Shown here piece after piece: positions 7,110-64,000 of a stretch of 64,000 nt of DNA. The notes under the pieces are model-generated. The model ran no database searches. It was not told where the DNA came from and was given only the letters and a program-made list of their open reading frames with translations. Position 1 is the stretch's first letter. The number at the start of each line of letters is the position of its first letter. A program made the position numbers and the translations under genes. Origin of the DNA: an uncultured virus (IMG/VR IMGVR_UViG_3300023172_002538) (Duplodnaviria; Heunggongvirae; Uroviricota; Caudoviricetes); the IMG/VR virus record IMGVR_UViG_3300023172_002538; one strand, written 5' to 3'.

Positions 7110-7111
7110 TC

Positions 7112-7288
7112 ATGGCTAAGTACAGCCGATTTGATTCCCGAAACAAAAAGCGTAACAATCATAAAAATCGTTACTTAGATAGAACCAATGCAAAAGGCAA
7201 GAAGCGTCAATTCAAAGACGATTATACTACCGAGCAGTGGTCAGAAAAGTACGCAATGGAGAAAGCAATCTCGATTGACTTATATTAG
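7112..7288 (+). CDS. Small basic hypothetical protein
   Basis: MAKYSRFDSRNKKRNNHK...; fills the gap in the operon. Confidence 0.6.
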   Translation: MAKYSRFDSRNKKRNNHKNRYLDRTNAKGKKRQFKDDYTTEQWSEKYAMEKAISIDLY

Positions 7289-13411: not shown

Positions 13412-13413
13412 AC

Positions 13414-47072: not shown

Positions 47073-47080
47073 TATAAATA
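47073..47080 (+). promoter_or_regulatory. T4-type late promoter TATAAATA
   Basis: Exact consensus upstream of gp25. Confidence 0.8.
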
Positions 47081-47105
47081 AACGAAAAAGGTTTTTAGGT
47101 TCACA

Positions 47106-47867
47106 ATGGCTAAAAAGTTTTCTACAGAAGATGGCAATCTAGACACGAGTATTCGCGTTGTTAAAAATCGTGACTACTCGGACCTTGACTTGTCTCTAAA
47201 TGCCAGAACGCCAACTTCTGATGGAGATGTTTTTAAAAAGACTGACGCGGCTTCTGTAAAGCAAGCTGTCAAGAATTTGTTGATGACGAACAGATTCGAA
47301 AAGCCGTATCGTCCTAATTACGGTGCTGATCTTGGCGGTCTTTTATTTGAATTGATGGATGAAGATACTGGTGAAGAAATCATCGGTAAAATCAAGAGCG
47401 CGATTCAACGTTATGAGCCTAGAGCTAAAGTATTAAATGTTAAAGTTGTAGCAACACCAGATTACAATAACGTATCAGTAGTAGTTGAGTTTAGAGTAGT
47501 CGCCACTGGATTAGTTGAAACATTAAAAGTTTCTCTCAATCCTTCGACGCCGACTGAAATTCCTTCACTGCCGATTACGACTGAGCCGTTCATTATTTAC
47601 AATGATATTATTAGAGGGGAAAATGGTGATCGTCTAGCAACTTATCGTGGCGATCTAGTTAAGCGTGATTTGGTAATACCGCCTCCTGATGCATTGCTGA
47701 CAGATCCAGATTCGGACATGATCTTTGCACTGTTTAACGGCTTTATTGAAGGCGTGTTGTTGATTGACTCTGATCTTCTAGAAGGTATTCTTACTGTGCC
47801 TGATGAAGATCAGATTTCACTACAGAACGGTGTAGACTTCTTGCTACCAGAACAAGTTATCGATTAA
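47106..47867 (+). CDS. gp25: Baseplate wedge subunit with ~110-aa C-terminal extension
   Basis: YSDLDL, SVKQAVKNLLMT..FEKPYRP.YG, LLFE, I.RYEPRA. Confidence 0.9.
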   Translation: MAKKFSTEDGNLDTSIRVVKNRDYSDLDLSLNARTPTSDGDVFKKTDAASVKQAVKNLLMTNRFEKPYRPNYGADLGGLLFELMDEDTGEEIIGKIKSAIQRYEPRAKVLNVKVVATPDYNNVSVVVEFRVVATGLVETLKVSLNPSTPTEIPSLPITTEPFIIYNDIIRGENGDRLATYRGDLVKRDLVIPPPDALLTDPDSDMIFALFNGFIEGVLLIDSDLLEGILTVPDEDQISLQNGVDFLLPEQVID

Positions 47868-47879
47868 TCGGAGTAAAAA

Positions 47880-49664
47880 ATGGCGACTACCATTAAGTCA
47901 ACAGAACTAGATTTTAACACGATCAAGAACAACTTGAAACTGTTCTTGGCACAGAAACCGGAGTTTGCGGACTACAACTTCGAAGCATCTGGCTTGTCAA
48001 ATCTATTGGATGTACTCGCCTATAATACGCACTACAATGCACTGATGGCAAACTTTGCTCTGAACGAATCGTTTCTGAGTTCTGCTCAATTGAGATCGTC
48101 GCTCGTTGGTCTTGCTGGAGGCTTGGGTTATAACGTCGGCTCAAGAAAAGCTTCGTTTGCAGTGGTAAATCTAAGCATCACGAATAACGATAATCCATCT
48201 TCAATGACCATTCCTTCTGGTACAAAATTCACTACGACAATTAACAGCAAAAGTTATACTTTTCAAACACGAGATGCACTCATTGCACTCGCTGATGGCA
48301 CAGGCGTTTATCAGTTTACGTTAAATGGTAATCGAAATATTCCTATCTATGAAGGCGTGACAAAACGTAAGACGTTTATTGCGGGCCCGTCAAGTGAGAA
48401 CGACACCTATGTAATTCCTGTTAAGAACCTTGATCTTGACACTGTAATCGTACGTGTGTACGATAGTGTCACATCTAATCGATACGATCAATACATTAAT
48501 ATTTTTGACACAACCACAATTGATGAAACGTCACGAATCTACGTCATGAAAGAATCGCCCAACGGCTACTATGAATTGACATTTGGTAATGGCGTTCGTC
48601 TTGGTCGATTCCCTCAAGCAGGTGACAAGATCGAAGTCATTTACTCTGCTGTTGCTGGACCAGAAGCAAATGGTGGTAAAACGTTTGTTCCCACAACAAC
48701 CATTGACGGAAAAACAGTAAACGTCACTACGGTTTCTGTATCTTCAGCTGGTTCGTTTAAGGAAGAAATTGAGTCTATTCGAAAGAATGCTCCTTTTCAA
48801 TGGGCAGCCCAGAATAGAATGGTGACATCACAAGACTATGCCGCACTCATTAGACGAAACTTTTCTAATGTGGTAGGTGACATTAAAGCGTGGGGTGGTG
48901 AAGATAATATACCTGCTGATTATGGTTCAGTGTATCTGTCAATCGTGTTCAACACAGAGGATGACGTGGTGATTGAGAACACGAAAAGTGACATCACTGC
49001 ACTTGCTGACGATTTGTCGATTGCCTCGTTTGATGTTAAATTCACAGATCCTGTCGAAACATTCCTTGAAGTTGCCACAGTATTTCAATTTAATCCACAA
49101 TTAACATCACTAGATCAAACAACAGTTGAAAATCAAGTGTTGGCGGCGATGCAGAATTATTTCGACACAAGCACAGGTGGATTTAATCAGTCTTTCCGTC
49201 GTTCTAATATGCTAACAGATATCGACGCTTCAGACGATTCGATTTTGTCGAGTAGGGCTGATATTAAGATGCAAGCTAGATTCGTACCAAACGGTTCTCC
49301 ATCACAAACAATTTTTTACTCTTCTGCAATTTCTGTTCCAGATGATGCAACTTATATCATACAGTCAGATCCATTTAATTTTAGAAGCAAAGTTTGTGTC
49401 TTAAGAAATCGTCTCGATTCTAATATTATGGAAATTATCGAAATTGCCACAGGAAATCCTTTGATTGACAACATCGGTACGTACGATGCTATAAACGGAA
49501 CAATTACATTGCTTAACTTTACTGGCACTATTTTAAATGGCGCATACATTAGAGTTGTGGCAACACCTGCGAATCCATCTGTGATTAGCCCTTTGAGAAA
49601 TAACATTGTTCGTTATGATAATCAAGCATCACGTGCACGTGCAGTTATCACAGATACGTTATAA
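47880..49664 (+). CDS. gp6: Baseplate wedge subunit
   Basis: LDFNTIK..L, DYNFEASGL..LLDVLAYNTHY, NESFLSSAQLRSS, FGNG, QNRMVT..DY, WGGED. Confidence 0.95.
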   Translation: MATTIKSTELDFNTIKNNLKLFLAQKPEFADYNFEASGLSNLLDVLAYNTHYNALMANFALNESFLSSAQLRSSLVGLAGGLGYNVGSRKASFAVVNLSITNNDNPSSMTIPSGTKFTTTINSKSYTFQTRDALIALADGTGVYQFTLNGNRNIPIYEGVTKRKTFIAGPSSENDTYVIPVKNLDLDTVIVRVYDSVTSNRYDQYINIFDTTTIDETSRIYVMKESPNGYYELTFGNGVRLGRFPQAGDKIEVIYSAVAGPEANGGKTFVPTTTIDGKTVNVTTVSVSSAGSFKEEIESIRKNAPFQWAAQNRMVTSQDYAALIRRNFSNVVGDIKAWGGEDNIPADYGSVYLSIVFNTEDDVVIENTKSDITALADDLSIASFDVKFTDPVETFLEVATVFQFNPQLTSLDQTTVENQVLAAMQNYFDTSTGGFNQSFRRSNMLTDIDASDDSILSSRADIKMQARFVPNGSPSQTIFYSSAISVPDDATYIIQSDPFNFRSKVCVLRNRLDSNIMEIIEIATGNPLIDNIGTYDAINGTITLLNFTGTILNGAYIRVVATPANPSVISPLRNNIVRYDNQASRARAVITDTL

Positions 49665-49667
49665 ATA
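49660..49667 (+). promoter_or_regulatory. T4-type late promoter TATAAATA
   Basis: Exact consensus upstream of gp8. Confidence 0.8.
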
Positions 49668-49691
49668 GAACATCGTTAAAGAGAATTACTT

Positions 49692-51068
49692 ATGCCAGCA
49701 TCCGCAACTAACAGTATGAGAGAACACTTATTGACTCTGTTTAAAGCAGATGTTGATAGTTCGTCTCCACCTTATCATATAGGAATTGCTAGATCAGATC
49801 CCGTCGGTCCTGCTGATGGAATTACTGAGACGACTGTGGGCTCGCAATTCAATCAGGAAAAGTTTAGACACACGTTGCAGTCAGTCAAAATTATGAGTAA
49901 TGCATCGTATGTAATTCCTGTTGTTAATTGGGAAAGTGGAGAAGTGTATGAAGCATACGATAACAATAATCCGTTTCAGACAAATTTCTACGTAATTAAC
50001 AGTGCCCGTGAAGTGTTCTTGTGTCTTGAGCAAGGTCGCTTGGATGATGGCAGTATTCAGCCTGCATTTACTGAGCCTACTTCTTTTCAAGCAAAGAATC
50101 AAGCAAAGTCTTTTAGAACGAGTGATGGCTATCTTTGGCGTTTCATGTACACGATCAGTAACTTTGCGGCTGGTAGTTTTCAGACAAGACAGTATGCACC
50201 AGTCAAGCAAATTGTAGACACAGGAACCACAATTCCTGAAGAGATTCAACAACTGAATTTGCAAGATAGTGCTATTGGCGGACAGATTCTAGGCGTTATC
50301 ATTGACAGTGGTGGTGATAATTATACGAACCCTACACTTACGTTCACAGGAAATGGTGCGGGCGCTCGATTCGTTGCTGATATTTTTGACAACAGAATCG
50401 TAAATGTAAGATGTGACTCAAACGGTATTGGTGGATTCTTGCACGGTGCTGACTATGACTATGCATCGATCATTGTTACAGATCCAGGCGGTGGTTCAGG
50501 AGCATCTTTGAGGCCCGTAATTGCACCCAGAGTAGGACTTGGCGCAGATCCAGTTCGTGATCTTAAGTGTCGCCAACTCATGCTACAGACCGATTTTATT
50601 GGTCGTGAAGAAAACACTATCGTAGCCAATGATTGCGAGTTTTATCAAGTTGGTATTATCAAGGGCTTAACACGATACGGTACTGATTCTGCATTTAATG
50701 GAAATACAGGACAAGTCTCAAAAATCTTGACCGTAAACGAAGTCACCGGCGCTTGGGTAGAAGGTGATACTTTTTCTAATGCTGAAGAAACAATCACTGG
50801 TAAAATTCTCTATCTAGATACACAGACTCTTTATTACTATCAAGACGTTGAAACAGGATTCGAAAGACCTCAAGCGGCTAACGGCTCTTTCGTTGCTGGA
50901 ATGGCATTGACCAATGAGCAAGGTGGCACAGCAACGATTACAGGTGTTGTTAATCCCGATGTTGACGCATATTCAGGTGAAATTTTATACATAAATACAC
51001 TTGAAGATGGAGTCACTCGGGAAGCAGATCAAACCGAAGACATTAGAATAGTTATTCAATTAGGATAA
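49692..51068 (+). CDS. gp8: Baseplate wedge subunit
   Basis: VIP..NW.SG..Y..YD, FYVIN...VFLCL, DGYLWRFMYTI, YSGEILYI, R..DQTEDIRIVIQ. Confidence 0.9.
   Translation: MPASATNSMREHLLTLFKADVDSSSPPYHIGIARSDPVGPADGITETTVGSQFNQEKFRHTLQSVKIMSNASYVIPVVNWESGEVYEAYDNNNPFQTNFYVINSAREVFLCLEQGRLDDGSIQPAFTEPTSFQAKNQAKSFRTSDGYLWRFMYTISNFAAGSFQTRQYAPVKQIVDTGTTIPEEIQQLNLQDSAIGGQILGVIIDSGGDNYTNPTLTFTGNGAGARFVADIFDNRIVNVRCDSNGIGGFLHGADYDYASIIVTDPGGGSGASLRPVIAPRVGLGADPVRDLKCRQLMLQTDFIGREENTIVANDCEFYQVGIIKGLTRYGTDSAFNGNTGQVSKILTVNEVTGAWVEGDTFSNAEETITGKILYLDTQTLYYYQDVETGFERPQAANGSFVAGMALTNEQGGTATITGVVNPDVDAYSGEILYINTLEDGVTREADQTEDIRIVIQLG
50990..50997 (+). promoter_or_regulatory. Late promoter variant CATAAATA
   Basis: One mismatch, ~75 nt upstream of the ORF at 51072. 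Confidence 0.45.
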
Positions 51069-51071
51069 AAA

Positions 51072-54000
51072 ATGGCTACAGAATTTACATCCAATACGCT
51101 ATCTGGTATTTACTCAGATGATTTTAATGAGGATAACAATTTTCATCAAATCCTCTTTAACAATGGTCGCGCTCTTCAAGCGCGGGAGCTAACACAGCTT
51201 CAATCAATCATCTTTCAAGAATTAGCCAGATTTGGTAAGAACGTCTTTAAAGAAGGCGCTGTAGTCAATACAGGCGGTATGGCTGTTAATGCCAACATTG
51301 ACTATATTAAAGTCTCGGCTGTAAATGCTGGCGGTGCATTCGCAGACATTCCTATTGGCACTGTTTTTAAGAACACAAGCACCGGCTTAGAAGCAAAAGT
51401 ACTAGATGTAAAACCCAGAAATGTTGACGATGGATTTGTTCTTGATACGCTTTATGTACAGTATGTAAATTCTGGTGGCACTACAAATTCACAATTTGGT
51501 GATGGTGATGTGCTGTTCGATCAGTCTGGTGGTGGCTATCAGATCACTACCGAAATTCCTAATGCTACGGGTAAAGGAGTCAGGTTCACTATAGGTGAGG
51601 GCGATTTCTTTGTTCTTGGTCACTTTGTTCACACTGTTGAACAATCGATCATTCTGTCTCCTTATACACAATCAGCAACAACGACGATTGGTTTTAAAGT
51701 TATTCAAGATGTTGTTACTGTCAATGATGATGTCAATTTATTCGACAATGCAAATGGTATTGTCAATACGGCATCTCCTGGTGCAGATCGTTTAAGAATT
51801 AGACTACAACTTACTGAACTGAGTAAGATAACCGAGAACGACACCTTCGTATTCGTCTGCAACATTGAGAATTCAAAAATCGTTGAGCAAGTCAAAGAGA
51901 TTGACGCTTACAACACTGTCAACGATTTGATTGCACAAAGAACGTTTGAAGAGTCTGGTAACTATGTAGTTGAACCATTCGTTGCAAGTGTTGATGAAGG
52001 TACTTTCGTGTATCTTGATTCTAGTTTTGATTTAATTTTATCATCTGGAATGGCATATGTCAACGGTTATCGTGTTGAAAAAATTGCACCAACTCGCTTA
52101 AAAGTACCTAAGCCTAAGACAACTGAAACAGTAGAAAACGATGTTATTCCTGTTACCTATGGTAACTATCTACTTGCAGACAGTCAGCGTGGTTTGATGG
52201 GTGGTCAATTTCACGATAATGTATATGAGTTTTATGATGACTTTGCTGGTCCTGCTTCAGGCACTTCACTAGGTTCTGCAAGAATTAGACAGGTGGAGAA
52301 AGCCGACGGTAACTATCGAGTTTATGTCTATGACGTACGGATCGATTCGGACAAGTCGTTAAGAGATGCCAAAGTACTTGCGAATACTACATCTGACAAA
52401 TGGAGCTTAAAGCTTGAAGATAATGGTGCACACTTATATGCATCAACTCAAGATAACAATCTTTTGTTCCCGCTGTCCCGTCCTCGTCCTGAGTCTTTTT
52501 CTGATATTGTATTGACGAAACAAAGACTGCAAGAATTTATTGTAGCCGATGGTAGTGGTGTTCTTACATTAAACACTCTGCCTGTAGGACAATCATATGT
52601 CGATACAACTCTATGGATCGTTGCTGACTCTGCGGCTATTTCACACACCGTATTAACACCTACGAACAGTGGTCGAGATGTGCAAATTTCGGGCGCAATT
52701 CCAGGCGATACTTACTCTGTTCTGTGCTATGTTCAAAAGACAGGCACACGAAAAGCTAAGACTGACACTTTCGTCAATGGCGGAAAACTTACAGTAGCAT
52801 ACGATTCAGCGGCTAGACAATACTACTATCAATTTCCATACGTCGATGTGCATGAAGTAAGGAACGTTAATGTAACCAACATCGATGGACGCGATATGTC
52901 AGGCGATGTCCGTTTAGATTGTGGTATACGTGATAATTACTATGCAAAGAGTAGACTGATTCTGAATGGTGATTACGATAGTGTTCCCACAACATTGCAC
53001 GTCGATTACTCTTACTATGCACGTGGTGGCGGTGGTGATTTTTATGACGCTACTTCTTATCCAGATAACATAATATTTGCTAATAATATTGGTGGTGTCG
53101 TAGATCAAATTCAGCAAGACGGTACTGTAATTAATATTGCTAACTATCTCGACTTTAGACCCGACGAAACGTCTGGTGCTTTTAGTGCTTTTGAACTTCC
53201 TAGAAATGGGAGCAACATTACAGCGGATGTTAGTTATTGGTTACCAAGAGCAGATAAAGTTATTCTGACTCAAGAGGGTGAAGTTCAAGTTCTGATGGGT
53301 CAACCAGCAGGCAATCCACAGTACAAGCCAACTCCAGACAATACGCTTGAACTTGCCAAAATCTTAATAAACGGCAATATGCATGCCTTTGATGACTTGC
53401 GTATTACACCTGTCGAGCATCGACGCTATACGATGGCTGACATTGCAAAACTTGAGGCAAAGGTCGATGAGTTACAAGAATACACCGATCTGAGTCTTTT
53501 AGAACTTGAGCAAAAATTGTTTGCGGCACTTGACAGTGTTGGTAATGCAAGAGCCGAGTGTTGCAATCTCTGTGATGATCACTCGGATCAGACGGGTGCG
53601 GATACGAACAATCCCGATTACTCTGCATCTCTGGATCCAGAAAACAAATTGATTCGTCCTACATTTGATGAGAACAACATTCGACTTATTATCGACACTT
53701 CACTTTCTTCGGGAATTGTTAAGAAGGGCGATAATGTCTATCTGACACATGACTCAGAAGCTTGGGCAACTCAGGATCTTGCTTCTACTACTGTTAAAGT
53801 TAATCCATTTGGATTGGTTGATAACGTAGGCACACTGAAGCTATCTCCCACTTCTGACGAGTGGAAAGATCCAGCACGTGCTGATCGTGCTGTGCCTGGT
53901 CAAGGTCGTCTTGATCGTAGACAAGCATATCTATGGAACAACTGGACTTGGAACTGGGCAGGTCGTTCTGCTGAAGACCTCGAATATTGGAATCCTTACT

Positions 54001-56543
54001 TTGATAACTCGATTATTGGGATTCGTCGAAGAAGGCTCGTTGAGCTAAGAGAGCGTTATTATTCTGGTCGAAATCAGGTCTCTCGATTCAGTGGTCGATT
54101 TGTGTCACGAGTTGTGCCTTCTGACACTCTACGTCAAGCAGTTGGCAATCGTGTTATCGATGTTGCATTGATTCCCTGGATGCGCTCTAGAAAGATTTAT
54201 TTCCACGCTAAGGGATTGAAGCCAAACACTAGACATTATCCTTTCTTTGATGGGAAAGAAGTTTCTGAATGGTGTCGTGAAGAGCCTGCATTCTTGATGT
54301 GGTCTGATCGTGATGATCAAACTGATCCACAAACTAGTTATTGGACAGACGAACATCCTGATGGACAATCGCAGTTGATTTCTGACGCGAACGGTGAAAT
54401 CATTGGTTCTTTCTGGATTCCAAACCCCGCAATAGAATGGAACGTCAGAGCGACAGATCGAGAAACACAGTATAAATCACCAAATTTTTATTTTAGAGCA
54501 GGCATTCGCGAATTCAAATTACTAGACACCAGTGTTAATGATTGGGGTCGAGCAGATAGTAAGTGCTTTGCATACTATGCGGCTGTTGGTGCAATCTGGC
54601 ATCACTGGAATAATTTGATTACGACTAGACCTTGGGGTTACTGGTGGCCATTGTCGTACTGGGTTCACTGGGCTCAGATTTACAGTCCAAAAGAACTCAG
54701 AAATACACTCGATCAAATACGATCATCGGCTATAAATCTTGTTGATCCTAAATTGTCAGGTCTCTATGGTCCTGCGCAAGCTGGACTATCAGCGGCAGCT
54801 CTTACTGGCCTTGATGCAAATGGTCAAATGTCGCAGATTCTTTCTGACTACATTGACGTTGATGCAAATCAGTTTGCAGAAGGATCACCAGCTACTACTA
54901 TTACAGCGCCACAGAATCCTATGGCACAAACATTTTTCGTTGACAATCAGTTTGGCGTTACACTGACAAGTCTGCAACTGTACTTCAAAGCAAAAGATGA
55001 CACGCTTCCTGTTCAGATTCATTTGCGTCCTGTTATTAACGGTAAGCCTGCACACAACGAAATTGTTCCTGATTCTCAAGTTGTTTTGAAATCGAGTCAG
55101 GTTAGAGTTGTTGGTGAAGATCCTACGTTGGCTGTTATTCAAGAGCGTCCCACAACGTTTACGTTCGATGAGCCAGTCTATCTGAAGCCTTGGACATCGT
55201 ACGCAATTGTTGTGACTTCACAGTCGACCGACTATGAACTGTTTAGTTCTAGAACATTGCTACCCGTATTCGGTTCAACTTCGCGAATCACATCGACGCA
55301 GAATGCTCCCGGAGCATTGTATCTGCCTCAGAACGGTCTTTCTTGGATCGAAGCAAAGGATCAGGATCTGATGTATGTTTTGAATCGTGCGAAGTTTGAT
55401 CTTGGTGGTGGTAGTTTGATTCTGAAAAATGCACCGTTACCTCCAAAACTTCTTGGTCAAGCTGATCCGACAAAACAATCGCCGAAGCCAAATATTGAAA
55501 CATTTGCAGGAACGAGAAAAATCTACGTGCATCACGCTAATCATGGTTTAGAACCAGGCGATCTTTGTAGACTCGACAGTGTTGCTAGTCTTGACTTTGG
55601 CGTAAGCGGCTATGCAGGTAGCATTGAAGGTTCTGGTGTATTCACTAATTCAAGTTCAATCGTATCGTACATCGAAGGAGCACACACAGTGGACTCTGTT
55701 GATGTGAATGGTTACTCATTCACTTATGATGTCTTACATCCAGTAGAAACATCATCAGGTCTCGGTAGTAGTCATAAAACATTATCCAGACGCAACGCTA
55801 TCTTTAGCACCGCGATGCCTACAATCGAAACTGTAGTTCCGAACTTTACATCAATCGATGCTGGAGCTAAGTGGTCAGAAGGCAAGATGTTGTCGAGTAC
55901 TAGAATCAATGCGGCTGGACGATGGAGCCAAGATGCGGATTACTCTAGAGTCACATTGATGCAAAACATCGACTTCGACACTCCAAAGGCTATTTACAAT
56001 CTAGCGGCTGAGGAAGCGAATTTCGGTGCTGGAGTCAGATCAGTATACTTCAAGCTTGATTTGAAAACATCGAATGATTATGTTTCACCTATCGTCGATA
56101 TGCAGAGAGCATCTTTGACGCTTGCTGGATTCAAGCTTGACAATCCAACCGTAACACCAGGAATTATCTCAGTCGATGAGACAAATCCGACTTCAGGAAC
56201 AACGGGTTCGAAGCACATTACAACACCTGTATTCCTCGAACAAGATGCTGTAGGCATTGATGTCAGAGCGTTAGTAAATATTCCTAATGATGCTGATATC
56301 TTGTGTTACTACAGAACTGCTGGTGCAGACGAAAATATACAAGATAAGTATTGGATATATCAGGAGAAAGTTGATAATATCCCATACGACAATTCTCAAG
56401 TATATCGAGATGCACAATGGTTGCCTGGTGGTCTAGGTGGTACTCTGAAGCCATTTAATCAAGCACAGTTTAAGTTTGTGTTTGTGGGTGGCGATAGAGC
56501 ACCCTCTATTAAGAACCTGAGATACAGATATCTGGCAGTGTAA
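51072..56543 (+). CDS. Large virion structural protein (VrlC/DUF4815-like)
   Basis: Y.DDF....FHQILF..GRALQARELTQLQSI, PGADRL, RTFEESGNY.V.PF, RRYTMADI..LE, PMAQTF.V. Confidence 0.88.
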   Translation: MATEFTSNTLSGIYSDDFNEDNNFHQILFNNGRALQARELTQLQSIIFQELARFGKNVFKEGAVVNTGGMAVNANIDYIKVSAVNAGGAFADIPIGTVFKNTSTGLEAKVLDVKPRNVDDGFVLDTLYVQYVNSGGTTNSQFGDGDVLFDQSGGGYQITTEIPNATGKGVRFTIGEGDFFVLGHFVHTVEQSIILSPYTQSATTTIGFKVIQDVVTVNDDVNLFDNANGIVNTASPGADRLRIRLQLTELSKITENDTFVFVCNIENSKIVEQVKEIDAYNTVNDLIAQRTFEESGNYVVEPFVASVDEGTFVYLDSSFDLILSSGMAYVNGYRVEKIAPTRLKVPKPKTTETVENDVIPVTYGNYLLADSQRGLMGGQFHDNVYEFYDDFAGPASGTSLGSARIRQVEKADGNYRVYVYDVRIDSDKSLRDAKVLANTTSDKWSLKLEDNGAHLYASTQDNNLLFPLSRPRPESFSDIVLTKQRLQEFIVADGSGVLTLNTLPVGQSYVDTTLWIVADSAAISHTVLTPTNSGRDVQISGAIPGDTYSVLCYVQKTGTRKAKTDTFVNGGKLTVAYDSAARQYYYQFPYVDVHEVRNVNVTNIDGRDMSGDVRLDCGIRDNYYAKSRLILNGDYDSVPTTLHVDYSYYARGGGGDFYDATSYPDNIIFANNIGGVVDQIQQDGTVINIANYLDFRPDETSGAFSAFELPRNGSNITADVSYWLPRADKVILTQEGEVQVLMGQPAGNPQYKPTPDNTLELAKILINGNMHAFDDLRITPVEHRRYTMADIAKLEAKVDELQEYTDLSLLELEQKLFAALDSVGNARAECCNLCDDHSDQTGADTNNPDYSASLDPENKLIRPTFDENNIRLIIDTSLSSGIVKKGDNVYLTHDSEAWATQDLASTTVKVNPFGLVDNVGTLKLSPTSDEWKDPARADRAVPGQGRLDRRQAYLWNNWTWNWAGRSAEDLEYWNPYFDNSIIGIRRRRLVELRERYYSGRNQVSRFSGRFVSRVVPSDTLRQAVGNRVIDVALIPWMRSRKIYFHAKGLKPNTRHYPFFDGKEVSEWCREEPAFLMWSDRDDQTDPQTSYWTDEHPDGQSQLISDANGEIIGSFWIPNPAIEWNVRATDRETQYKSPNFYFRAGIREFKLLDTSVNDWGRADSKCFAYYAAVGAIWHHWNNLITTRPWGYWWPLSYWVHWAQIYSPKELRNTLDQIRSSAINLVDPKLSGLYGPAQAGLSAAALTGLDANGQMSQILSDYIDVDANQFAEGSPATTITAPQNPMAQTFFVDNQFGVTLTSLQLYFKAKDDTLPVQIHLRPVINGKPAHNEIVPDSQVVLKSSQVRVVGEDPTLAVIQERPTTFTFDEPVYLKPWTSYAIVVTSQSTDYELFSSRTLLPVFGSTSRITSTQNAPGALYLPQNGLSWIEAKDQDLMYVLNRAKFDLGGGSLILKNAPLPPKLLGQADPTKQSPKPNIETFAGTRKIYVHHANHGLEPGDLCRLDSVASLDFGVSGYAGSIEGSGVFTNSSSIVSYIEGAHTVDSVDVNGYSFTYDVLHPVETSSGLGSSHKTLSRRNAIFSTAMPTIETVVPNFTSIDAGAKWSEGKMLSSTRINAAGRWSQDADYSRVTLMQNIDFDTPKAIYNLAAEEANFGAGVRSVYFKLDLKTSNDYVSPIVDMQRASLTLAGFKLDNPTVTPGIISVDETNPTSGTTGSKHITTPVFLEQDAVGIDVRALVNIPNDADILCYYRTAGADENIQDKYWIYQEKVDNIPYDNSQVYRDAQWLPGGLGGTLKPFNQAQFKFVFVGGDRAPSIKNLRYRYLAV

Positions 56544-56776
56544 TGAGCAGATATGTACCTGTGAAGGGGCACTCTGGCTTAGTTCGTGACACATATTCCA
56601 ACGCATTGATTAACACCAATGCTCAGGAGATCGAACAAGCCAGAGAGCGTAAACGCCTCCGTCAACTTGAAAAAGCCCAAAAACAATCACTTGAACAAAA
56701 GGTAGAGACTATCGAAAAGGATCTGGATGAAATAAAAAGTATGTTGAAAGACTTGATCCACAATTCTTATAAATAA
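56543..56776 (+). CDS. Small coiled-coil protein
   Basis: VKGHSGLVRD..SNALIN followed by a heptad-rich C-terminus; usual neighbour of VrlC-like genes. Confidence 0.75.
   Translation: MSRYVPVKGHSGLVRDTYSNALINTNAQEIEQARERKRLRQLEKAQKQSLEQKVETIEKDLDEIKSMLKDLIHNSYK
56768..56775 (+). promoter_or_regulatory. T4-type late promoter TATAAATA
   Basis: Exact consensus ~35 nt upstream of the 2080-aa gene. Confidence 0.8.
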
Positions 56777-56808: not shown

Positions 56809-59800
56809 ATGTCTTATCGTCCTCTCAAACACTTAAATGAAGGTGCGTTCAAAGAGCTACTGACTTCTGAAGAAGACTATCTGGCTTATCGAGCGGGTGT
56901 TCATTTAAGTAAAATGACAACAAGTGATTTGTCTGCGCTTTCTACTAACGCGGCAGGCGAACTTGTTGGTACGTTTGAAGACACTTTTTATACCTCTGGT
57001 CTAGGTCCCATTCCTGGCTCGACAATTACTCGCACAATTGCGATTACTCATGCATCTGATCCTGCTGGATCAACGCACACTTCTACGTTTGGTGCTTTCA
57101 CGCCTTTACCCACTGTTGTTTATGTGGGAGACACAATTGAACTAACAATTCAAGGCACAGCGACAAACACAGGCATTGGATTTGAAGAGATTGAATATCA
57201 GTTAGGTATTTCTGGTAGCGCGGCTATAGGAACTATTACTACGACTCCTTCGCCAGCGGCAACGAGTACGAGTGCAAACGGTCGAGAAGTATCGTGGGAA
57301 AATTATCCTGACGGCAATCTTAGCGGTTCTTATCAAGTCACGTGGTCTATTCCGATTACCGATGATGGCGTAATCAACTTCACACTCAACGGTACTACTA
57401 CTGATTTTCAAAACAGTGTTGTAAGTTCTACCGATGCTGAAGTGCTACCTTCTGTTCGTGTAGAGCCACAGTTGAAGCCAACTACTTCGGCTACACTGTA
57501 TGAATTATATCAGAACGATGCGAATGTAGCAACCATCGACAACGACAATGCTCTAAAAAGAAATCCACTCTATTGGGATCGAACTGCAACGCCTGCTGGC
57601 TTGAAAGAAATGAGCGATGCAGAACTCGATATTGTAGTTCAAAGACTTCTTTTAAAAATCTTTGCAAACGATCTTCCCGGTCAGTATCGCCTTGCTACAG
57701 TATCTCCGGGCGCACAGTGGTCAGAGTTTATCGCAGATGTATTTGAAGACACTCGTGGTGACGGTTCACTTGTTACTTATTCTATCTGGGTCAAAACAAC
57801 CGCAACAGTTCCGACAGTAGTTAAACCTATTTCGCCTTTACGTCAACCGTTGACTAACAAGTTTCAAGGTATAAAGGATCTTAATGATTTAGAACTTGAA
57901 ATGACTTTCGGCGAACGAATGAAGCAGGTTATTCAAGACACTGGCATTGGTAAGTATCAACTTCGATCTTCTGCTGACGGACCACCTACAGATCCAGGTA
58001 CGTGGGAAGCACGTGGTAGTGCAATCGATACAAACCTAACTTACGAATCTGAAACGGCTTATATTTCAACCGATTCGTATGATATTAACTACGCTTCGCA
58101 GTATCAAGGTTCATATGTTCCTGATTACATAGGCGAGTACATTGACACATACGAATCCAACTATCTTGGTGAATACGGCGCTACTTATACATCATCTTAT
58201 ACTGGCAATTACGAGGCTACGTACATCGGTACGTTTAGTGGTGATTACGCGCAGAGTTATATAGGCGATTATCTTCTTGAGTACGCTCAATCTTATGAGA
58301 GTGGTTATGAAGGTGAATATGTTCCCAATTATTCGGGTCTTACTGTTGAAGAGCAGTACACGACCATTTACGAAGCTGAGGACGCGATTGAATTTTATGC
58401 GTCAGCATACGCAGAACTTTATGGTGATCTTCCTGTAATTTATACGGGCAACTATGTTACTCAGTACGTCGAGGAAGTTTATACAGGTAACTTTACGGAA
58501 CTGTATGTCGGCGATTACGTCATAGACTATAGTGGTAACTTTACAGAAAATTACATCGATGATGTCTATACAGGTAACTATATTGACGTATACACTGGCG
58601 ACTACACAGAAAATTATGAAGGCAACTTTACCGTTAACTATATTCAAACTGAATATGCCGGTAACTTTACACAGCCGTACACTGGTGATTTTACAGCCGC
58701 ATACTCTACGTCTTATGCAGTTACTTACGCACAAGAAAACTATACTGGTAACTATCAATCAGATTATGCTTCTGAATATCAAGTGCCTTACACAGGCGAC
58801 TTCTTAGCCACTTATATTCAGTTGATTTACGGTGGTAATTTCATCGAACAATACAGCGGTGACTTTACTGCAACTTATGCGGGCAACTTTACCGAAACTT
58901 ATACTCAAGCCCAATATACTGGTAACTACTTGTCACAGTACGCTGGCAACTATCAGTCTGATTATTCTGGCGATTATATTGGAACTTATGAGCAACAGAC
59001 TTACACGGGTAACTATATTTCTGATTACACGGGTAACTATCAGTCTCAGTATTCTGGTGACTTTACTGCCACTTATGCTCAAGCACAATACACAGGTGAC
59101 TTCATTGTAAGTTACTCTGGTGACTTTATTGCTACATTCCAAGGACAGTATGAAGGCAATTATCAGTCTCAATACACTGGTAACTTCTTACAGGACTATA
59201 CTGGTAACTTTATTCAAGGTTTTGAAGGACAATATCAAGGTAACTATCAAGTCAACTATGACGGTAATTACATTTCGGACTATGTTACTGCTAGTTACAC
59301 AGGCGACTTCTTGGCTGTTTATTCGGGCAACTTTGTAGAAACGTTCGAAGGTCAGTACACTGGTAACTATCTTTCGACGTATGCTGGCAACTATACTTCA
59401 GATTACGTCGGCGATTTTGTTCAGACATTCCAAGGGCAATATGTCACTGTTTACGAAGAGCCGTATACCGGTAACTTTGTAAACACATTTATTTCTGCTG
59501 ACTATACAGGCGATTACATCTCGCAATACGAGAGTAATTTCTTGCAAGCGTATTCTGGTAATTACGTCTCACTTTATGTGCAAGCCAACTATACTGGCAA
59601 CTTCGCGGCTCAATATACTGGCGACTTTACCGCAAACTATCAAGGCGATTTTCTAACTACATTCGTTGATGCGAACTACACTGGTAACTATGCTTCGGAT
59701 TATGTTCGTGCGTCTTATACCGGTAACTTCCTAGCCACATATTCTGGCGATTTTCTTGCCTCTTATACCGGTGACTTTGTTACAACGTTCGTTGATGCGA

Positions 59801-62800
59801 ACTATACTGGTAACTATGTTAGTCAATATTTGGGGACTCGGAATGTAACTTATTCGGGTAACTACATTTCGAATTACGCACAGGCGAACTATACGGGTAA
59901 CTTCCTTGCAACATTCGTTGATGCAAACTACACAGGCAACTTCCTAGTAACTTATGCTGGCGACTTTACTGCTACATTCCAAGGGCAGTATCAAGGTGAC
60001 TATGAGTCGGGCTATGCTGGCTCATTCGTCGCTCGATATACTGGTGACTTCTTAGGAACATTCCAGGGTCAATATGTTGGTGATTTCTTAGCCAACTATG
60101 ATGGCAACTTTATTGCAAATTACGCTGGCGACTTCCTTGCTACGTTCCAAGGGCAGTATGTTGGTGACTATGTTGGTCAGTATACAAGACAAATCAACGT
60201 AGGCTATACAGGAAGCTTTCTGGCGACATTCCAGGGACAGTACACAGGTTCGTTTTCTCAAACTTATGTAGGGACTTACACAGGCACATATGTCGGTAAC
60301 TACACTGGTACATATGTCGGAAACTATGCTGGTGCTTATGTATCGGCGGCAGCCACTTATCAAGGTGGCTACGCCGGTGCTGCCGCTTGGACATCGTACT
60401 TCTTCAGTCTTAGTTCTCCTCGTTATTACTGGTATACGACACAAGCAAGATTTGCTTTTCCCGTAAACCGTTGGTTTTATTGGAATAATTCATTTCAATC
60501 ATTGGCGAGCATTGCCAATGACGGATTAGTTCCCTTTTTTAGTCGCGGTTTTGAATATGAAGCGGGTACCATACAATATCAGACAGGATCGTCTTTAAGC
60601 ACTCTCCGCAACTATTACAATATCAGACGCCGGTCAATTTTTGGTGGCTCAACATACACTGGCGGATATACCGGCGGTGGCGGCACTTATACAGGAACAT
60701 ATGTTGGTTCGATTCAGCAAACCTATACTGGCTCGATTCAACAGTCGTACGATGGTAATTATATTGGCTCTGTTAACATAACATTCGTTGACGCAAACTA
60801 TACTGGTGACTATCTTGGTCAGTATATACGAGCAATTAATCAAAGTTACACAAGTGTGTTCCAACAAACATTCGTTGATGCAAACTACACTGGTAACTTT
60901 ATTGTTAATTATTCAGGCGATTATGTTTCTCGTTATACGGGCAACTTCCTTGCAACGTTCGTTGATGCAAACTACTCTGGTAACTTCTTAGCGACATATA
61001 CCGGCAACTATACTGGTGTATATGTTGGTAGCTTCCTTGCAACGTTTGTTGATGCAAACTATGTGGGTAACTATGTTTCGAACTATACCGGTGACTTCTT
61101 AGGAACGTTCCAGGGTCAGTACGTTGGTGATTTCTTAGCAACATTCCAAGGTCAGTATCAAGGCGATTTTATTGCGAACTACGTTGCAACGTTCGAACAA
61201 AATTACACTGGTGACTTCCTTGCTACGTTCCAAGGCCAGTATCTGGGTAACTTTGTAACGCCTTATACTGGCAACTATATTTCAAATTATGCTGGCGACT
61301 TTACGGCGGCGTATACTGGAAACTATGTTGGCGATTTCTTAGCCACGTTCCAGGGACAATATCTGGGTAACTTTACTGTACAATATACCGGTAATTATCT
61401 GAGTCAATATACTTCTGATTTCTTAGCCACGTTCCAGGGACAGTATGTCGGTGATTACATTTCGAACTATAATGCAGACTTCAATACTCAGTATCAGTCA
61501 AACTTTACGGCAACGTTCCAGGGTCAGTACATTGGTGATTTCTTAGCAACATACACTGGCACTTATGACACAATATATGTTCAAGCCGACTACACTGGTA
61601 ACTTCGTCACAACATACAGTGGTGATTATATCTCTGATTACACCGGTGACTTTACTGCCAACTTCGTTTCACAGCAATACACTGGTGATTATATCTCTGA
61701 TTACACTGGTAACTTTGCAGTAACGTATACTGGTAATTATCTCGGCGATTACGTTTCGCGATACACTGGCGACTACGTTGGAAATTACGCCGATCAAGTG
61801 TACGGTGGTGACTTTACTCAAGTCTATACTGGCGACTTTACGAATAACTACGTTGGCGATTATATTTCTACATACGCTCAAGCAGATTATTCTGGTAACT
61901 ACGTATCAAATTATCAGGGTAACTTCACGGCGCAGTTCGAAGGTCAATACGTAGGCAACTTCTTAGAAGATTATACGGGCGACTTTACAGCTATTTACTC
62001 TGGTGACTTCCTTCAAGGATTTGCTGGTCAATACGAAGGTAATTATATTACTCCGTATACCGGTGATTATATTTCAGCCTATACTGGTGATTTTCTTGCA
62101 ACGTTTGAAGGTCAATATGTTGGCGATTTCATCGTACAATACACTGGTAACTTCATCGAAACTTATGAAGCAGACTTCGTACAAGATTTTGAAGGTCAGT
62201 ATACTGGTAACTATCAGTCTGACTATACTGGCGATTATGTCGCAATTTATACTGGTGACTTCTTACAGATTTTCCAAGGGCAATATGTCGGCGATTACGT
62301 AAAAGCATATATCGGCAATTATCAGTCAGCCTATACGGGCGATTTCGTATCGATATTTGAAGGTCAGTACACCGGTGATTATCTGTCTGATTACACTGGT
62401 AACTATCAAGCAAATTATTCAGGCGACTATCTGTCTAACTTCGAAGGTCAGTACACTGGTGACTTTATCGTAACATACACAGGCAATTACGAAGTAGACT
62501 ACACGGGCGACTTTGTTGAATCATACACCCAAGATTATGAGCAAGACTACATAGAAGATTATGTTGCTCAAGAAGCATACGTAACGGCTTATGCTGGAAA
62601 CTACACTCCAACATACGAAACAGTTTATACTGGTGATTATACTCCTGATTACGAAGGTCCATCGGGCGACTATTTAGGAACCTATCTTTCGAATTACACT
62701 GAAGAGTTGTATGCGCAAGAGTTTACGGTTGACTACATATCATTAGACTATACGAGAAATCGCGAAGAAAGTTACACTGGTGATTCTTATATAGAAACGT

Positions 62801-63051
62801 ACACAACTGATTTCGAATCAAGTACTGATTACGCCACTTATTTGGGCGGTGATGATAATGAAGAATATGTAGGAACATTTGAGGGCGCGGGAGATGCAGA
62901 AGTTTATGGTGGTTCTCCTTATGAAGGATCTAGTTACGTATCTGATTACAATCGAGTAGTTACCATCGCAGAAGCATATTTGGATGACGCTAAATTAACA
63001 TCAACACCAGTAACAATTGAGACATTTACATTATACGTACGTGTTGCTTAA
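56809..63051 (+). CDS. Giant Tyr/Gly tetrapeptide-repeat protein, probable virion fibre with mirror-matched arms
   Basis: ~420-aa non-repetitive N-terminus, then [YF]xG[ND]/[YF]xxx repeats either side of a ~90-aa unique central domain; late promoter; structural context. Confidence 0.8.
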   Translation: MSYRPLKHLNEGAFKELLTSEEDYLAYRAGVHLSKMTTSDLSALSTNAAGELVGTFEDTFYTSGLGPIPGSTITRTIAITHASDPAGSTHTSTFGAFTPLPTVVYVGDTIELTIQGTATNTGIGFEEIEYQLGISGSAAIGTITTTPSPAATSTSANGREVSWENYPDGNLSGSYQVTWSIPITDDGVINFTLNGTTTDFQNSVVSSTDAEVLPSVRVEPQLKPTTSATLYELYQNDANVATIDNDNALKRNPLYWDRTATPAGLKEMSDAELDIVVQRLLLKIFANDLPGQYRLATVSPGAQWSEFIADVFEDTRGDGSLVTYSIWVKTTATVPTVVKPISPLRQPLTNKFQGIKDLNDLELEMTFGERMKQVIQDTGIGKYQLRSSADGPPTDPGTWEARGSAIDTNLTYESETAYISTDSYDINYASQYQGSYVPDYIGEYIDTYESNYLGEYGATYTSSYTGNYEATYIGTFSGDYAQSYIGDYLLEYAQSYESGYEGEYVPNYSGLTVEEQYTTIYEAEDAIEFYASAYAELYGDLPVIYTGNYVTQYVEEVYTGNFTELYVGDYVIDYSGNFTENYIDDVYTGNYIDVYTGDYTENYEGNFTVNYIQTEYAGNFTQPYTGDFTAAYSTSYAVTYAQENYTGNYQSDYASEYQVPYTGDFLATYIQLIYGGNFIEQYSGDFTATYAGNFTETYTQAQYTGNYLSQYAGNYQSDYSGDYIGTYEQQTYTGNYISDYTGNYQSQYSGDFTATYAQAQYTGDFIVSYSGDFIATFQGQYEGNYQSQYTGNFLQDYTGNFIQGFEGQYQGNYQVNYDGNYISDYVTASYTGDFLAVYSGNFVETFEGQYTGNYLSTYAGNYTSDYVGDFVQTFQGQYVTVYEEPYTGNFVNTFISADYTGDYISQYESNFLQAYSGNYVSLYVQANYTGNFAAQYTGDFTANYQGDFLTTFVDANYTGNYASDYVRASYTGNFLATYSGDFLASYTGDFVTTFVDANYTGNYVSQYLGTRNVTYSGNYISNYAQANYTGNFLATFVDANYTGNFLVTYAGDFTATFQGQYQGDYESGYAGSFVARYTGDFLGTFQGQYVGDFLANYDGNFIANYAGDFLATFQGQYVGDYVGQYTRQINVGYTGSFLATFQGQYTGSFSQTYVGTYTGTYVGNYTGTYVGNYAGAYVSAAATYQGGYAGAAAWTSYFFSLSSPRYYWYTTQARFAFPVNRWFYWNNSFQSLASIANDGLVPFFSRGFEYEAGTIQYQTGSSLSTLRNYYNIRRRSIFGGSTYTGGYTGGGGTYTGTYVGSIQQTYTGSIQQSYDGNYIGSVNITFVDANYTGDYLGQYIRAINQSYTSVFQQTFVDANYTGNFIVNYSGDYVSRYTGNFLATFVDANYSGNFLATYTGNYTGVYVGSFLATFVDANYVGNYVSNYTGDFLGTFQGQYVGDFLATFQGQYQGDFIANYVATFEQNYTGDFLATFQGQYLGNFVTPYTGNYISNYAGDFTAAYTGNYVGDFLATFQGQYLGNFTVQYTGNYLSQYTSDFLATFQGQYVGDYISNYNADFNTQYQSNFTATFQGQYIGDFLATYTGTYDTIYVQADYTGNFVTTYSGDYISDYTGDFTANFVSQQYTGDYISDYTGNFAVTYTGNYLGDYVSRYTGDYVGNYADQVYGGDFTQVYTGDFTNNYVGDYISTYAQADYSGNYVSNYQGNFTAQFEGQYVGNFLEDYTGDFTAIYSGDFLQGFAGQYEGNYITPYTGDYISAYTGDFLATFEGQYVGDFIVQYTGNFIETYEADFVQDFEGQYTGNYQSDYTGDYVAIYTGDFLQIFQGQYVGDYVKAYIGNYQSAYTGDFVSIFEGQYTGDYLSDYTGNYQANYSGDYLSNFEGQYTGDFIVTYTGNYEVDYTGDFVESYTQDYEQDYIEDYVAQEAYVTAYAGNYTPTYETVYTGDYTPDYEGPSGDYLGTYLSNYTEELYAQEFTVDYISLDYTRNREESYTGDSYIETYTTDFESSTDYATYLGGDDNEEYVGTFEGAGDAEVYGGSPYEGSSYVSDYNRVVTIAEAYLDDAKLTSTPVTIETFTLYVRVA
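58050..62960 (+). repeat. Coding 12/24-nt periodic repeat region
   Basis: Recurring TAYACNGGYRAY and ACRTTCCARGGNCARTA units, interrupted at ~60388-60651. Confidence 0.9.
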
Positions 63052-63066: not shown

Positions 63067-63546
63067 ATGGCAAAGTATGAGTACTTAGATAATGCATTTT
63101 GGGAAGCAGAAGATCGCTCAATCGTAAAATGCATTAGGCTAACTACGCTTGAAGGTCAAGAAGGCAAGAAGAAAAAAGACGTTATGGAGTTTCGCAAGAT
63201 TCGTCCTGATGGCTCTGAATGCCCTCACTATAAAGAAGTGGTAACAAAAGTAGGCATTCCAAAGATTGATGAGAATACTGCTGAACGTAAAGAAAGAAAA
63301 GAGCGTGAAGTAAGAGAAAAACGCGCTCATCACGAGCAAAAGAAAAAGACTGCTGAACTAGAGCAACTTTTCAATCTTAAGCTTCAAGCCTTTGAAATTG
63401 AAGAGATTAAAAATTCTGAAGATCGTGTATTACGTGGCAAGATTCGTAGAGCGCAAAATGTAGTAGAAATGAATGCGTTGTGTGCAGTTTTGATCGCAAA
63501 AGAATTGGGCTATTATGGAGACAAAGATGACGCAGGAGCCAACTAA
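63067..63546 (+). CDS. Hypothetical protein with coiled-coil centre
   Basis: 159 aa, GGAG RBS, directly after the fibre gene. Confidence 0.75.
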   Translation: MAKYEYLDNAFWEAEDRSIVKCIRLTTLEGQEGKKKKDVMEFRKIRPDGSECPHYKEVVTKVGIPKIDENTAERKERKEREVREKRAHHEQKKKTAELEQLFNLKLQAFEIEEIKNSEDRVLRGKIRRAQNVVEMNALCAVLIAKELGYYGDKDDAGAN

Positions 63547-64000
63547 GGGTTACGTAATCGTTGCGTCACGGCGAAGTTTCTTTTATGTGTCTGCACTTAA
63601 TTTGATGGAATCAATTCGCGATTTTTATCCTGATGCAAATATCTGTCTAGTCTGTGAAGAAAAGTTTCTTGATGATCGAGGACGAAAACTCGCCAACGAA
63701 ATAATTTTCTGTAACGATCACAAGCGAGCCAAACTTTGGGGCATGGCAAAGTCTCCATGGGATATTACATTCTATATTGACGCAGACACAGAAGTCGAGC
63801 ATGAAGACATTGAACATGTCTTTGGCGAACTGAATGGCTATGATGTCATGTACACTGGTCTTCCCGAAGAACGTTCTTACTGTTATGCAGAACTGAAGTT
63901 TCCTGGTGGTCAATTCGAACTGTGTGGGGCAGTGTGTCTGTATGACATGCGCAATCCATTAGTGCGCGAGTTTATGTGGGACTGGTATGATCTGACTGTT
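63527..64000 (+). CDS. GT-A glycosyltransferase (truncated by window end)
   Basis: Not in the ORF track. MTQEPTKGYVIVAS...SIRDFYPDANICL...RAKLWGMAKSPWDITFYIDADT (DxD); open to base 64000. Confidence 0.75.
   Translation, partial: MTQEPTKGYVIVASRRSFFYVSALNLMESIRDFYPDANICLVCEEKFLDDRGRKLANEIIFCNDHKRAKLWGMAKSPWDITFYIDADTEVEHEDIEHVFGELNGYDVMYTGLPEERSYCYAELKFPGGQFELCGAVCLYDMRNPLVREFMWDWYDLTV

Follow-up and report, generated by a model that had tools for sequence, protein, structure and literature searches.

The adenovirus triple beta-spiral is one example of a long fibre shaft built from repeats. The present analysis concerns another candidate shaft of this general kind, encoded within a stretch of 64,000 nucleotides from an uncultured T4-like phage of the Caudoviricetes (IMG/VR record IMGVR_UViG_3300023172_002538), referred to below as the window. 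The gene specifies a protein of 2080 residues (P0001) in which two long arms, made of short units led by Tyr or Phe, lie on either side of a small central domain. Irregularities in the two arms mirror one another about that domain, and we shall argue that the arms pair in antiparallel fashion and that the polypeptide probably folds back on itself as a single hairpin. The closest described system is the needle of T4 gp37 (D10-D11), in which the chain runs out to a receptor-binding tip and then back, the tip lying at the turn. According to the portions of the gp37 paper that deal with the needle (PMC6957217), D10 consists of residues 811-881 together with residues 1010-1026, that is, of outgoing and returning segments; the needle contains seven iron ions, and glycines pack against aromatic residues of neighbouring strands, as with G921 and F970.

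The protein from the window would follow the same path as the needle if its arms pair within one chain. There are, however, clear differences. In gp37 the fold-back is confined to about 200 residues at the end of a linear fibre and is held by histidine-bound iron, whereas here the whole shaft would be a hairpin (2 x 760 residues, and 2 x ~1340 residues in a longer relative, L007), with both termini at the base. The register follows an octapeptide pairing code. There is no histidine and no HxH motif in either arm, the central domain or the C-terminal tail, and the arms also lack cysteine. Since both the iron-binding histidine motifs and any sequence similarity are absent, the protein is not a member of the gp37-needle group; the likeness to the needle that was drawn in an earlier reading of the sequence (the original prediction) stands as an analogy of the fold-back, but does not extend to the iron sites.

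A second comparison is with the T4 gp5C triple beta-helix (VxGxxxxx; PF06715). The parts of PMC3004832 that set out its prism give the octapeptide Gly at position a, Asn or Asp at b, Val at g and a polar residue at h. The arms described here likewise have an eight-residue repeat with Gly at a and Asn or Asp at b, while g is hydrophobic and h polar, and they share the natural period of three octapeptides. They differ in that position g is aromatic rather than Val, position c is aromatic as well, and a half-unit is added for every three octapeptides. The strands of gp5C are parallel and come from three chains, whereas the arms are antiparallel and are read as belonging to one chain; the partner of each strand is the other arm, with Gly opposite an aromatic residue and not Gly over Gly. 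The Gp5_C profile gave no match with the whole protein at E<=0.01 or with arm fragments at E<=10.

Finally, the long repeat-built fibre shafts of the RBPseg atlas (PMC12143355), in so far as its main text describes them, are likewise elongated, beta-rich and receptor-binding, and are encoded near baseplate and chaperone genes. That text mentions gp37-like needle tips as C-terminal modules, and the terms 'hairpin', 'antiparallel' and 'folds back' are absent from it. In the usual fibres the variable receptor-binding part is C-terminal, whereas here the variable part is in mid-sequence. The protein has no Pfam or PHROG family; Pfam searches of the arms, the central domain and the C-terminal part at E<=10 returned nothing meaningful, and phmmer against PDB sequences found no relative (best E 0.79, to an unrelated plant protein). 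A full-text literature search, which did not cover subscription-only papers, brought up neither this family nor any fibre whose whole shaft is a hairpin. The fold-back topology as such is known in phage fibres; the architecture and the pairing code are novel, and a residue-by-residue pairing code on such a scale is found in no described fibre family.

Repeat lattice and mirror register of the arms

When the protein is cut at each Tyr and Phe, the N-terminal domain proves non-repetitive and the arms resolve into a regular lattice (Table 1). The original prediction, which covered positions 58552-62451 (residues 582-1881), had described tetrapeptides beginning with Tyr or Phe and punctuated by two irregularities, 5-residue units and extra Gly-containing tetrapeptides. 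The lattice and both irregularities are reproduced by the cutting, but the true unit is an octapeptide, [YF]-x-G-[ND]-[FY]-h-small-x, and not a tetrapeptide. With its positions lettered g-h-a-b-c-d-e-f, the octapeptide reads [YF]-T-G-[ND]-[FY]-[LVIT]-[AGS]-[TND]. Three octapeptides and one half-unit make a super-repeat of 28 or 29 residues, the half-unit being either FxGQ (four residues) or a 5-mer such as FVDAN or YAQAN. There are 142 octads in the 2080-residue protein and 287 in L007, with Asn or Asp at b in 75-82%, Tyr or Phe at g in 100% and Thr at h in 44-55%; because the octads were selected by a pattern that requires Gly at a, the glycine there is not a finding.

The composition of the arms is as unusual as their periodicity. 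Tyr and Phe make up about 24% of each arm (23.8% of the left), and acidic residues far outnumber basic ones (80 Asp and Glu against 4 Lys and Arg in the left arm, 94 against 6 in the right). Summed over both arms (58078-62946), the shaft is thus extremely acidic, at 174 against 10, and Glu, Asp and Gln are commoner in its outer levels than in its inner ones. The 99-residue central domain is basic, with 8 Lys and Arg against 3 Asp and Glu. It is flanked by the 7-mers YVSAAAT (residue 1177) and YTGGGGT (residue 1287), at which the two arms can be anchored to one another for comparison, the left-arm core being reversed and set against the right-arm core, with 154 units in each.

In this alignment 21 of the 24 marker levels of the left arm face a marker of the complementary type in the right arm (FxGQ against a 5-mer), and none faces a marker of like type. 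At the remaining three, a left 5-mer faces an ordinary tetrapeptide (YVRAS/YTGN, YVTAS/YTGN and YVEEV/YTQD). It had been claimed, from counting by hand, that every 5-mer on one arm faces an extra tetrapeptide on the other, at 23 levels with equal spacings on both arms. The spacings of 6,6,6,4,2,6,6,2,6,6,4,6,4,4,6,4,6,6,6,6,6,6 units are identical on recount, and the inner run of eight tetrapeptides and the facing pair YTRQINVG/YIRAINQS are found as described. Two of the 23 supposed extra tetrapeptides are YTGN rather than FxGQ. With a further level at residues 553/1906, the facing rule holds at 21 of 24 levels.

It should be noted that 'six tetrapeptides between markers' is simply the 28/29-residue period, and the informative parts of the pattern are therefore the mirrored irregular spacings and the complementarity of type. 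Other shifts in the mirror orientation gave at most 16 coincidences, and the best of 121 shifts in the direct orientation gave 11. When the marker string was compared with shuffled controls, as the original prediction had proposed, the mirror match was not reached: none of 200,000 block shuffles of the right arm attained 21 (maximum 19), nor did any of 200,000 shuffles of marker type at fixed positions, for which the exact chance is 1/203,490. The internal similarities among repeats are mirrored too. The repeat-similarity matrices of the two arms correlate in the mirror register with r = 0.467, a value that none of 20,000 permutations reached, as against -0.18 to 0.28 at other shifts and -0.03 in reversed order. 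The DNA of the gene contains diverged direct repeats, in 27 families, but not a single inverted repeat, so the mirror is not a DNA palindrome, and a palindrome at the DNA level is ruled out as its source.

A residue-level pairing code

Covariation between the arms was scored as mutual information, expressed as z against shuffled levels, over 24 left and 24 right positions of 52 full levels (16 from the 2080-residue protein and 36 from L007). The mean z reaches 4.2 along the anti-diagonal a+b=22; no other anti-diagonal exceeds 2.0 and no diagonal exceeds 1.6, and the four strongest couplings (z = 22, 14, 12 and 9) all fall on a+b=22. This is the anti-diagonal pattern that the original prediction had put forward as a check of the fold-back. 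The pairs brought together in this register are g with e (Tyr or Phe with a small residue), a with c (Gly with Phe or Tyr), b with b, d with h, and f with f, a scheme that, to judge from the covarying positions, has the geometry of a dyad-symmetric antiparallel ribbon.

The b-b pairs provide the most legible part of the code. Of 156 mirrored pairs, 137 are N:D or D:N, one is D:D and none is N:N, whereas 312 off-register pairs comprise 85 D:D, 76 N:N, 64 D:N and 49 N:D. A blind scan of unit offsets gave complementary to like counts of 47:0 for the 2080-residue protein, 48:0 for the 2078-residue form (L005) and 108:1 for L007, in each case at a single best offset; in a fourth form, L017, the counts are 21:0 before an inserted domain and 42:0 after it (63/63). 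All other offsets are mixed, for example 23:15 and 11:18. At the level of units, Gly-containing units stand opposite units lacking Gly in 453 cases, as against 57 like-with-like (23 A-A and 34 B-B), and a marker stands opposite a marker in 85 cases and opposite an ordinary unit in 8.

The half-units deserve separate comment. Two facing half-units of four residues would stay in register, so the constant opposition of four against five residues implies one extra residue in exactly one strand at each level. From the arrangement of the sequence we read that residue as a probable beta-bulge. Taken together, the shuffles, the anti-diagonal covariation and the Asn/Asp complementarity agree with the claim of the original prediction that the arms lie antiparallel in fixed register, and we regard such pairing as almost certain.

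Relatives and natural length variants

A search of metagenomic proteins returned 95 homologues of 1145-3118 residues and one of 3756 residues, which have in common the N-terminal domain, arms with the Tyr/Phe lattice and the C-terminal ending. Scans with the N-terminal domain located identical 2080-residue copies at four loci (L001-L003 and L015), a 2078-residue form (L005, L006 and L011; N-domain identity 86.8% in L005), a 3237-residue form (L007/L014, with the variant L013; about 60-61.5%) and a form of more than 3015 residues that runs off its contig (L017; 47%).

The 3237-residue form (encoded at L007:6545-16258) bears on how length may change. Its arms have about 300 units each, and the register is kept at 45 levels, of which 40 are complementary and none is like; at the other five, left 5-mers stand opposite YTGN, FIGL or FIGA. 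Over the inner 150 units the marker pattern is the same as in the 2080-residue protein, and each arm has some 21 levels more, among them an irregular spacing of two units that is mirrored on the other arm. The repeat-identity matrices of the two arms correlate in the mirror register with r = 0.514 (none of 20,000 permutations reached it; maximum 0.313), as against 0.27 or less when shifted and -0.04 in reversed order. The level pairs 34/38, 25/27, 35/39 and 32/36 are the most similar in both arms; for levels 34/38 the left-arm copies are 96% identical and the right-arm copies 92%. That the same level pairs are most alike in both arms indicates that blocks of levels were duplicated at mirrored places. 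Blocks of two and four levels (levels 25-28 and 34-41) have been duplicated at equal levels in both arms, which implies that compensatory duplication occurred twice independently.

In L017 the levels fall in two segments, with 10 and 15 complementary, none like, and 6 and 1 unpaired. Its right arm alone carries a non-repeat, Trp/Asn-rich globular domain of 226 residues (residues 2332-2557 of the protein at L017:649-9694). Beyond this insertion the arms are again in register and again obey the Asn/Asp code, after a slack of about four units. The inserted domain may form a side knob on the shaft. The original prediction had argued that a change of length would need coordinated changes in both arms: the length changes in L007 and L017 are indeed paired, and the duplications in L007 are matched between its arms, but the 226-residue insertion in one arm of L017 has no counterpart in the other. 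A smaller feature, the octapeptide YTRxINxx, is paired as well: three relatives have it at equal level on both arms, and L007 lacks it on both.

More distant members are less clear. The only carrier of the N-terminal domain among 50,697 phage records is Phage C48C1 (Kyanoviridae; L021:1821-11864, OQ984149), where the protein of 3347 residues is annotated as a 'hypothetical protein'. It contains about 146 tetrapeptide units in an uninterrupted run and ends in ...TLYVRVA, and the neighbours of its gene carry the annotations tail assembly chaperone and L-shaped tail fiber protein assembly. A tblastn search of the same records with the whole protein gave local matches of 29-30% identity to C48C1 and to an S-RIM2 'structural protein'; the latter proved not to be of the tetrapeptide type. 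The token strings of C48C1 and of the metagenomic proteins P0003-P0098 show no clear mirrored markers, and in a scan of their G[ND] sites for a constant i+j the sites are few and confounded by periodicity within each arm. As the register is undemonstrated in these proteins, the design may be limited to the subfamily comprising the 2080-residue protein, L005, L007 and L017. A hidden Markov model of the central domain matches this subfamily, P0075 and P0083 only.

Pairing within one chain or between chains

The proposed arrangement is as follows. The conserved N-terminal domain would lie at the baseplate end, from which the chain would run outward for about 760 residues. A tip of 99 residues, basic, fast-evolving and likely to be the receptor binder, would follow, after which the chain would return for about 764 residues, antiparallel to the outgoing arm, so that the conserved tail of 34 residues would end beside the N-terminal domain. 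Usually after three octapeptides, a half-unit (g-h-a-b) would occur in both arms at equal level, exactly one half-unit of each pair being one residue longer (FxGQ opposite [FY]x[DQ]A[NDQ]), which we read as a beta-bulge. The checkerboard of aromatic and small residues on one face of the ribbon would have to be buried, presumably by oligomerization; a trimer is assumed solely because other fibres are built that way.

Much the same mirror could in principle be produced by antiparallel pairing between different chains, in a dimer or a D3 hexamer. The product would then be a rod of double length, with N-terminal domains and C-terminal tails at both ends and the variable domains in the middle. An antiparallel homo-oligomer predicts the mirror register, the anti-diagonal covariation, the Asn/Asp code and the matched duplications equally well. 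What bears on the choice is the distribution of conservation. Between the 2080- and 2078-residue forms (L005), the N-terminal domain, both halves of both arms and the C-terminal tail are 85-91% identical, whereas the centre is 41.4% identical; against L007 the corresponding values are 61-71% and 34%. The tail, at 91.2% identity to L005 and 70.6% to L007, is as conserved as the N-terminal domain, and its ending recurs in the C48C1 homologue and in the consensus of alignment A2. A fibre fixed at one end requires its attachment parts to be together and its diversifying binder to be at the free end, and a hairpin thus fits a variable domain in mid-sequence. Conserved termini and a hypervariable centre therefore favour the intrachain fold; a hypervariable basic domain at mid-rod with conserved ends would be the opposite of what such a fibre needs. 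In addition, the arms are nearly equal in length (760 and 764 residues), the register continues as far as the linkers and 7-mers that flank the small central domain, as expected at a hairpin turn, and the T4 gp37 needle offers an intrachain precedent in the needle portion of PMC6957217. None of these points is decisive. We nevertheless consider pairing between chains distinctly unlikely, and a hairpin within one chain probable.

The central domain is hypervariable, with the exception of a conserved frame visible in alignment A1 (AWT.YF, YYW and YY.[IV]RRR). Its variability and its position in the sequence suggest that it is likely to bind the receptor. The best functional reading of the product, on sequence and context, would be a fibre of the tail or baseplate whose tip binds the receptor, and we judge it fairly probable that the gene encodes a virion fibre in which the polypeptide forms one giant hairpin with such a tip at the turn. 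A more specific proposal can also be made: that the arms form a self-complementary beta-ribbon whose register is written in a residue code (Asn:Asp, aromatic:Gly or Ala, one bulge per half-unit pair), comparable in its role to the base pairs of a nucleic-acid hairpin, and whose length evolves only by matched duplications or deletions at mirrored levels, the 2080-, 3237- and >3015-residue forms being length variants of a programmable hairpin rod in a fibre fold class of its own. We favour this proposal also, with less assurance.

Several observations weigh against the hairpin as proposed. Covariation does not distinguish contacts inside one chain from contacts among several. Duplicated repeats do not count as independent observations. 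The Asn/Asp signal is owed in part to a consensus at each position (N,D,D in the left arm and N,N,D in the right), but departures from that consensus co-vary between the arms too, as the z-scores measure. No marker is visible on one arm at 3/24 of the left-arm levels in the 2080-residue protein, at 5/45 in L007 and at 7 in L017, and the last of these proteins carries the unpaired insertion with its few units of slack. The mirror register is undemonstrated in the distant members, and a poor AlphaFold2 (AF2) model of a fragment, discussed below, would, if read literally, point to a solenoid rather than a flat ribbon.

Geometry of the shaft

The AF2 model in question, made from the single sequence of residues 1015-1457, has a predicted local distance difference test score (pLDDT) of 46, falling below 30 in the centre, and a predicted template modelling score of 0.35; its better-scored left arm has two short strands per 28 residues. 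Foldseek against the PDB gave nothing at E<=0.001 for this model, and the weak rows to beta-solenoids were all at E>=0.06 on a model of pLDDT 46. A complex prediction with three copies of residues 1073-1400 and the 5-row alignment A1 gave ipSAE values of 0.00 and 0.00, with partner pLDDT below 50, which speaks neither for nor against binding.

Such a model, with its weak Foldseek rows to FapC, CsgA and beta-helices, is what could be cited for each arm being an independent beta-solenoid, the mirror then being a by-product of repeat evolution or of composition. We consider this highly improbable. Under independent solenoids there would be no reason for mirrored irregular spacings and complementarity of marker type, and neither the Asn/Asp complementarity of 47:0 to 108:1 at one offset only, nor the anti-diagonal covariation, nor the duplication of equal levels in both arms would be explained. 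There is no inverted DNA repeat that could copy the pattern from one arm to the other. Furthermore, the coil lengths are not constant (12/13, 20/21 and 28/29 residues), which a single stacked solenoid would not accommodate; to these points are added the long-range couplings between the arms.

A different question is whether paired arms would run straight. It may be that the hairpin pairing is real but that the ribbon is wound into a triangular beta-helical prism by its gp5C-like octapeptides, with their Gly kink at a and Asn or Asp at b. Each octapeptide would then supply a single face and every turn would take three, the outgoing and returning strands of one or three chains interleaving into antiparallel faces; by our arithmetic the shaft would be about 25-90 nm long. 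The octapeptide is compatible with this in its composition, which resembles gp5C at b (Asn or Asp in 75-82%) and has Tyr or Phe at g, Thr at h and Phe or Tyr at c, the Gly at a being fixed by the selection pattern. The phage's own gp5C-like protein contains G-D-F and G-N-Y octads, the dominant spacing in the arms is exactly three octapeptides, and the low-confidence AF2 model has short strands in a 28-residue period, though that model is too poor to count for winding. There is, however, no Pfam Gp5_C match even at E<=10. The faces of gp5C are parallel and in register, whereas here Gly stands opposite an aromatic residue across an antiparallel dyad, with the kinks offset by two residues. A half-unit in each turn would shift the corner phase by 60 degrees, and levels of one or two octapeptides occur. 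We regard winding as rather unlikely on this evidence.

Alternatively, the ribbon could be extended along the fibre axis, an oligomer covering its aromatic/small face in the manner of the gp37 needle, in which case the shaft would measure about 250 nm here and about 440 nm in L007. The length of roughly 200 nm given in the original prediction is valid for a fully extended ribbon, but a wound geometry of the gp5C kind would be much shorter, and the figure is an upper-range estimate.

Implications

If the hairpin is correct, this would be the first phage fibre with its whole shaft built as a single out-and-back hairpin. The receptor-binding domain would be encoded in mid-gene and both termini would lie at the baseplate, which would alter annotation and the mapping of host range in uncultured T4-like phages. 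The rules of pairing (Asn:Asp, aromatic:Gly and a single bulge at each level) can be read from the sequence with unusual ease, and their consequences for register, length and the effects of mutations are directly testable. Compensatory evolution of repeats has seldom been documented in a protein, and the pair of 2080- and 3237-residue forms, in which length has changed by matched duplications in both arms, would be one such instance. In protein design, the code could supply a rule for building long beta-ribbon nanofibres of defined register.

Genome context and other features of the locus

The coordinates of the gene, its parts and the neighbouring genes are collected in Table 1; the context genes were assigned by Pfam and PHROG scans.

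Table 1. Features of the fibre locus. Coordinates refer to the window unless prefixed with L002, a locus with an identical fibre gene.
Feature	Residues	Coordinates	Strand	Basis or remark
Whole fibre gene, 2080-residue protein P0001	1-2080	56809..63051	+	Open reading frame listing, translation
N-terminal domain, presumed attachment end	1-423	56809..58077	+	Conserved in ~100 homologues
Ig-like / pilin-type beta-sandwich inserted in N-terminal domain	84-221	57058..57471	+	VIA-align
Left (putative outgoing) arm, 760 residues, Y/F-led octapeptide lattice	424-1183	58078..60357	+	Tokenization, register statistics, composition
Left-arm registered core	545-1176	58441-60336	+	
Central (putative tip) domain, 99 residues	1184-1282	60358..60654	+	Aromatic-rich, basic, hypervariable
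Right (putative returning) arm, 764 residues	1283-2046	60655..62946	+	Mirror register, anti-diagonal covariation, Asn/Asp complementarity
Right-arm registered core	1294-1917	60688-62559	+	
Conserved C-terminal tail, 34 residues, ends ...TLYVRVA	2047-2080	62947..63048	+	
T4-like baseplate genes: tube cap, gp53-like, split gp5, gp25, gp6, wedge protein		38680-51068		Upstream
1823-residue DUF4815/phrog_358 structural protein and 77-residue phrog_473 virion protein		51072..56776	+	Directly upstream
Downstream open reading frames: 159 residues, then one running off the window		63067..64000	+	
phrog_3304 'L-shaped tail fiber protein assembly'-like gene		L002:18181-18534		Chaperone-like; E 1.6e-12
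Another fibre gene		L002:19729-21258		Tail-fibre PHROGs
Two Nol-like carbamoyltransferases		440-2038, 2450-4222		
Radical SAM protein		10508-11614		
HAD hydrolase fused to nucleotidyltransferase		13282-14775		

The features common to tail-fibre genes are present, with baseplate genes upstream, chaperone-like and fibre genes downstream (at L002) and a hypervariable tip. On the downstream side, the identical locus (L002:16259-21258) extends beyond the end of the window and has open reading frames of 159, 249 and 226 residues 3' of the fibre gene, to which Pfam and PHROG scans assigned no family. A protein of 383 residues, of no assigned family, lies between the phrog_3304 gene and the second fibre gene. 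A blastn search of the phage records with the baseplate region gave no match, and psbA was not found in one related record (41% complete by estimate).

The N-terminal domain was modelled by AF2 from a 49-row alignment with a pLDDT of 90.5. Foldseek searches of the PDB and BFVD with this model returned only template modelling scores of 0.21 or less, with no convincing match to the whole domain, and the ESM Atlas gave nothing (best score 0.76). Structural neighbours were obtained for no part of the domain but the inserted beta-sandwich, for which a wide VIA-align search found 3kpt_A at Z 9.2 (root mean square deviation 3.0 over 124 residues) and many Ig-like domains of pilins and cohesins at Z 8-9; the fold being common, this is a weak clue to function.

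Some minor observations on the window may be added. The gp5-like cell-puncturing protein of the phage is spread over three open reading frames (42058-46335), namely an OB domain with a phage lysozyme (289 residues), an Amidase_2 protein (651 residues) and a gp5C beta-helix with VxG[ND] octads (487 residues), the last of which gives weak matches to Gp5_trimer_C and Gp5_C. Two open reading frames of 118 residues lie on the minus strand inside the repeat arms (58402-58758 and 60088-60444) and are most likely by-products of the repetitive codon pattern rather than genes. Finally, the region 440-14775, which includes the carbamoyltransferase, radical SAM and HAD hydrolase genes of Table 1, is a probable modification or auxiliary gene cluster.

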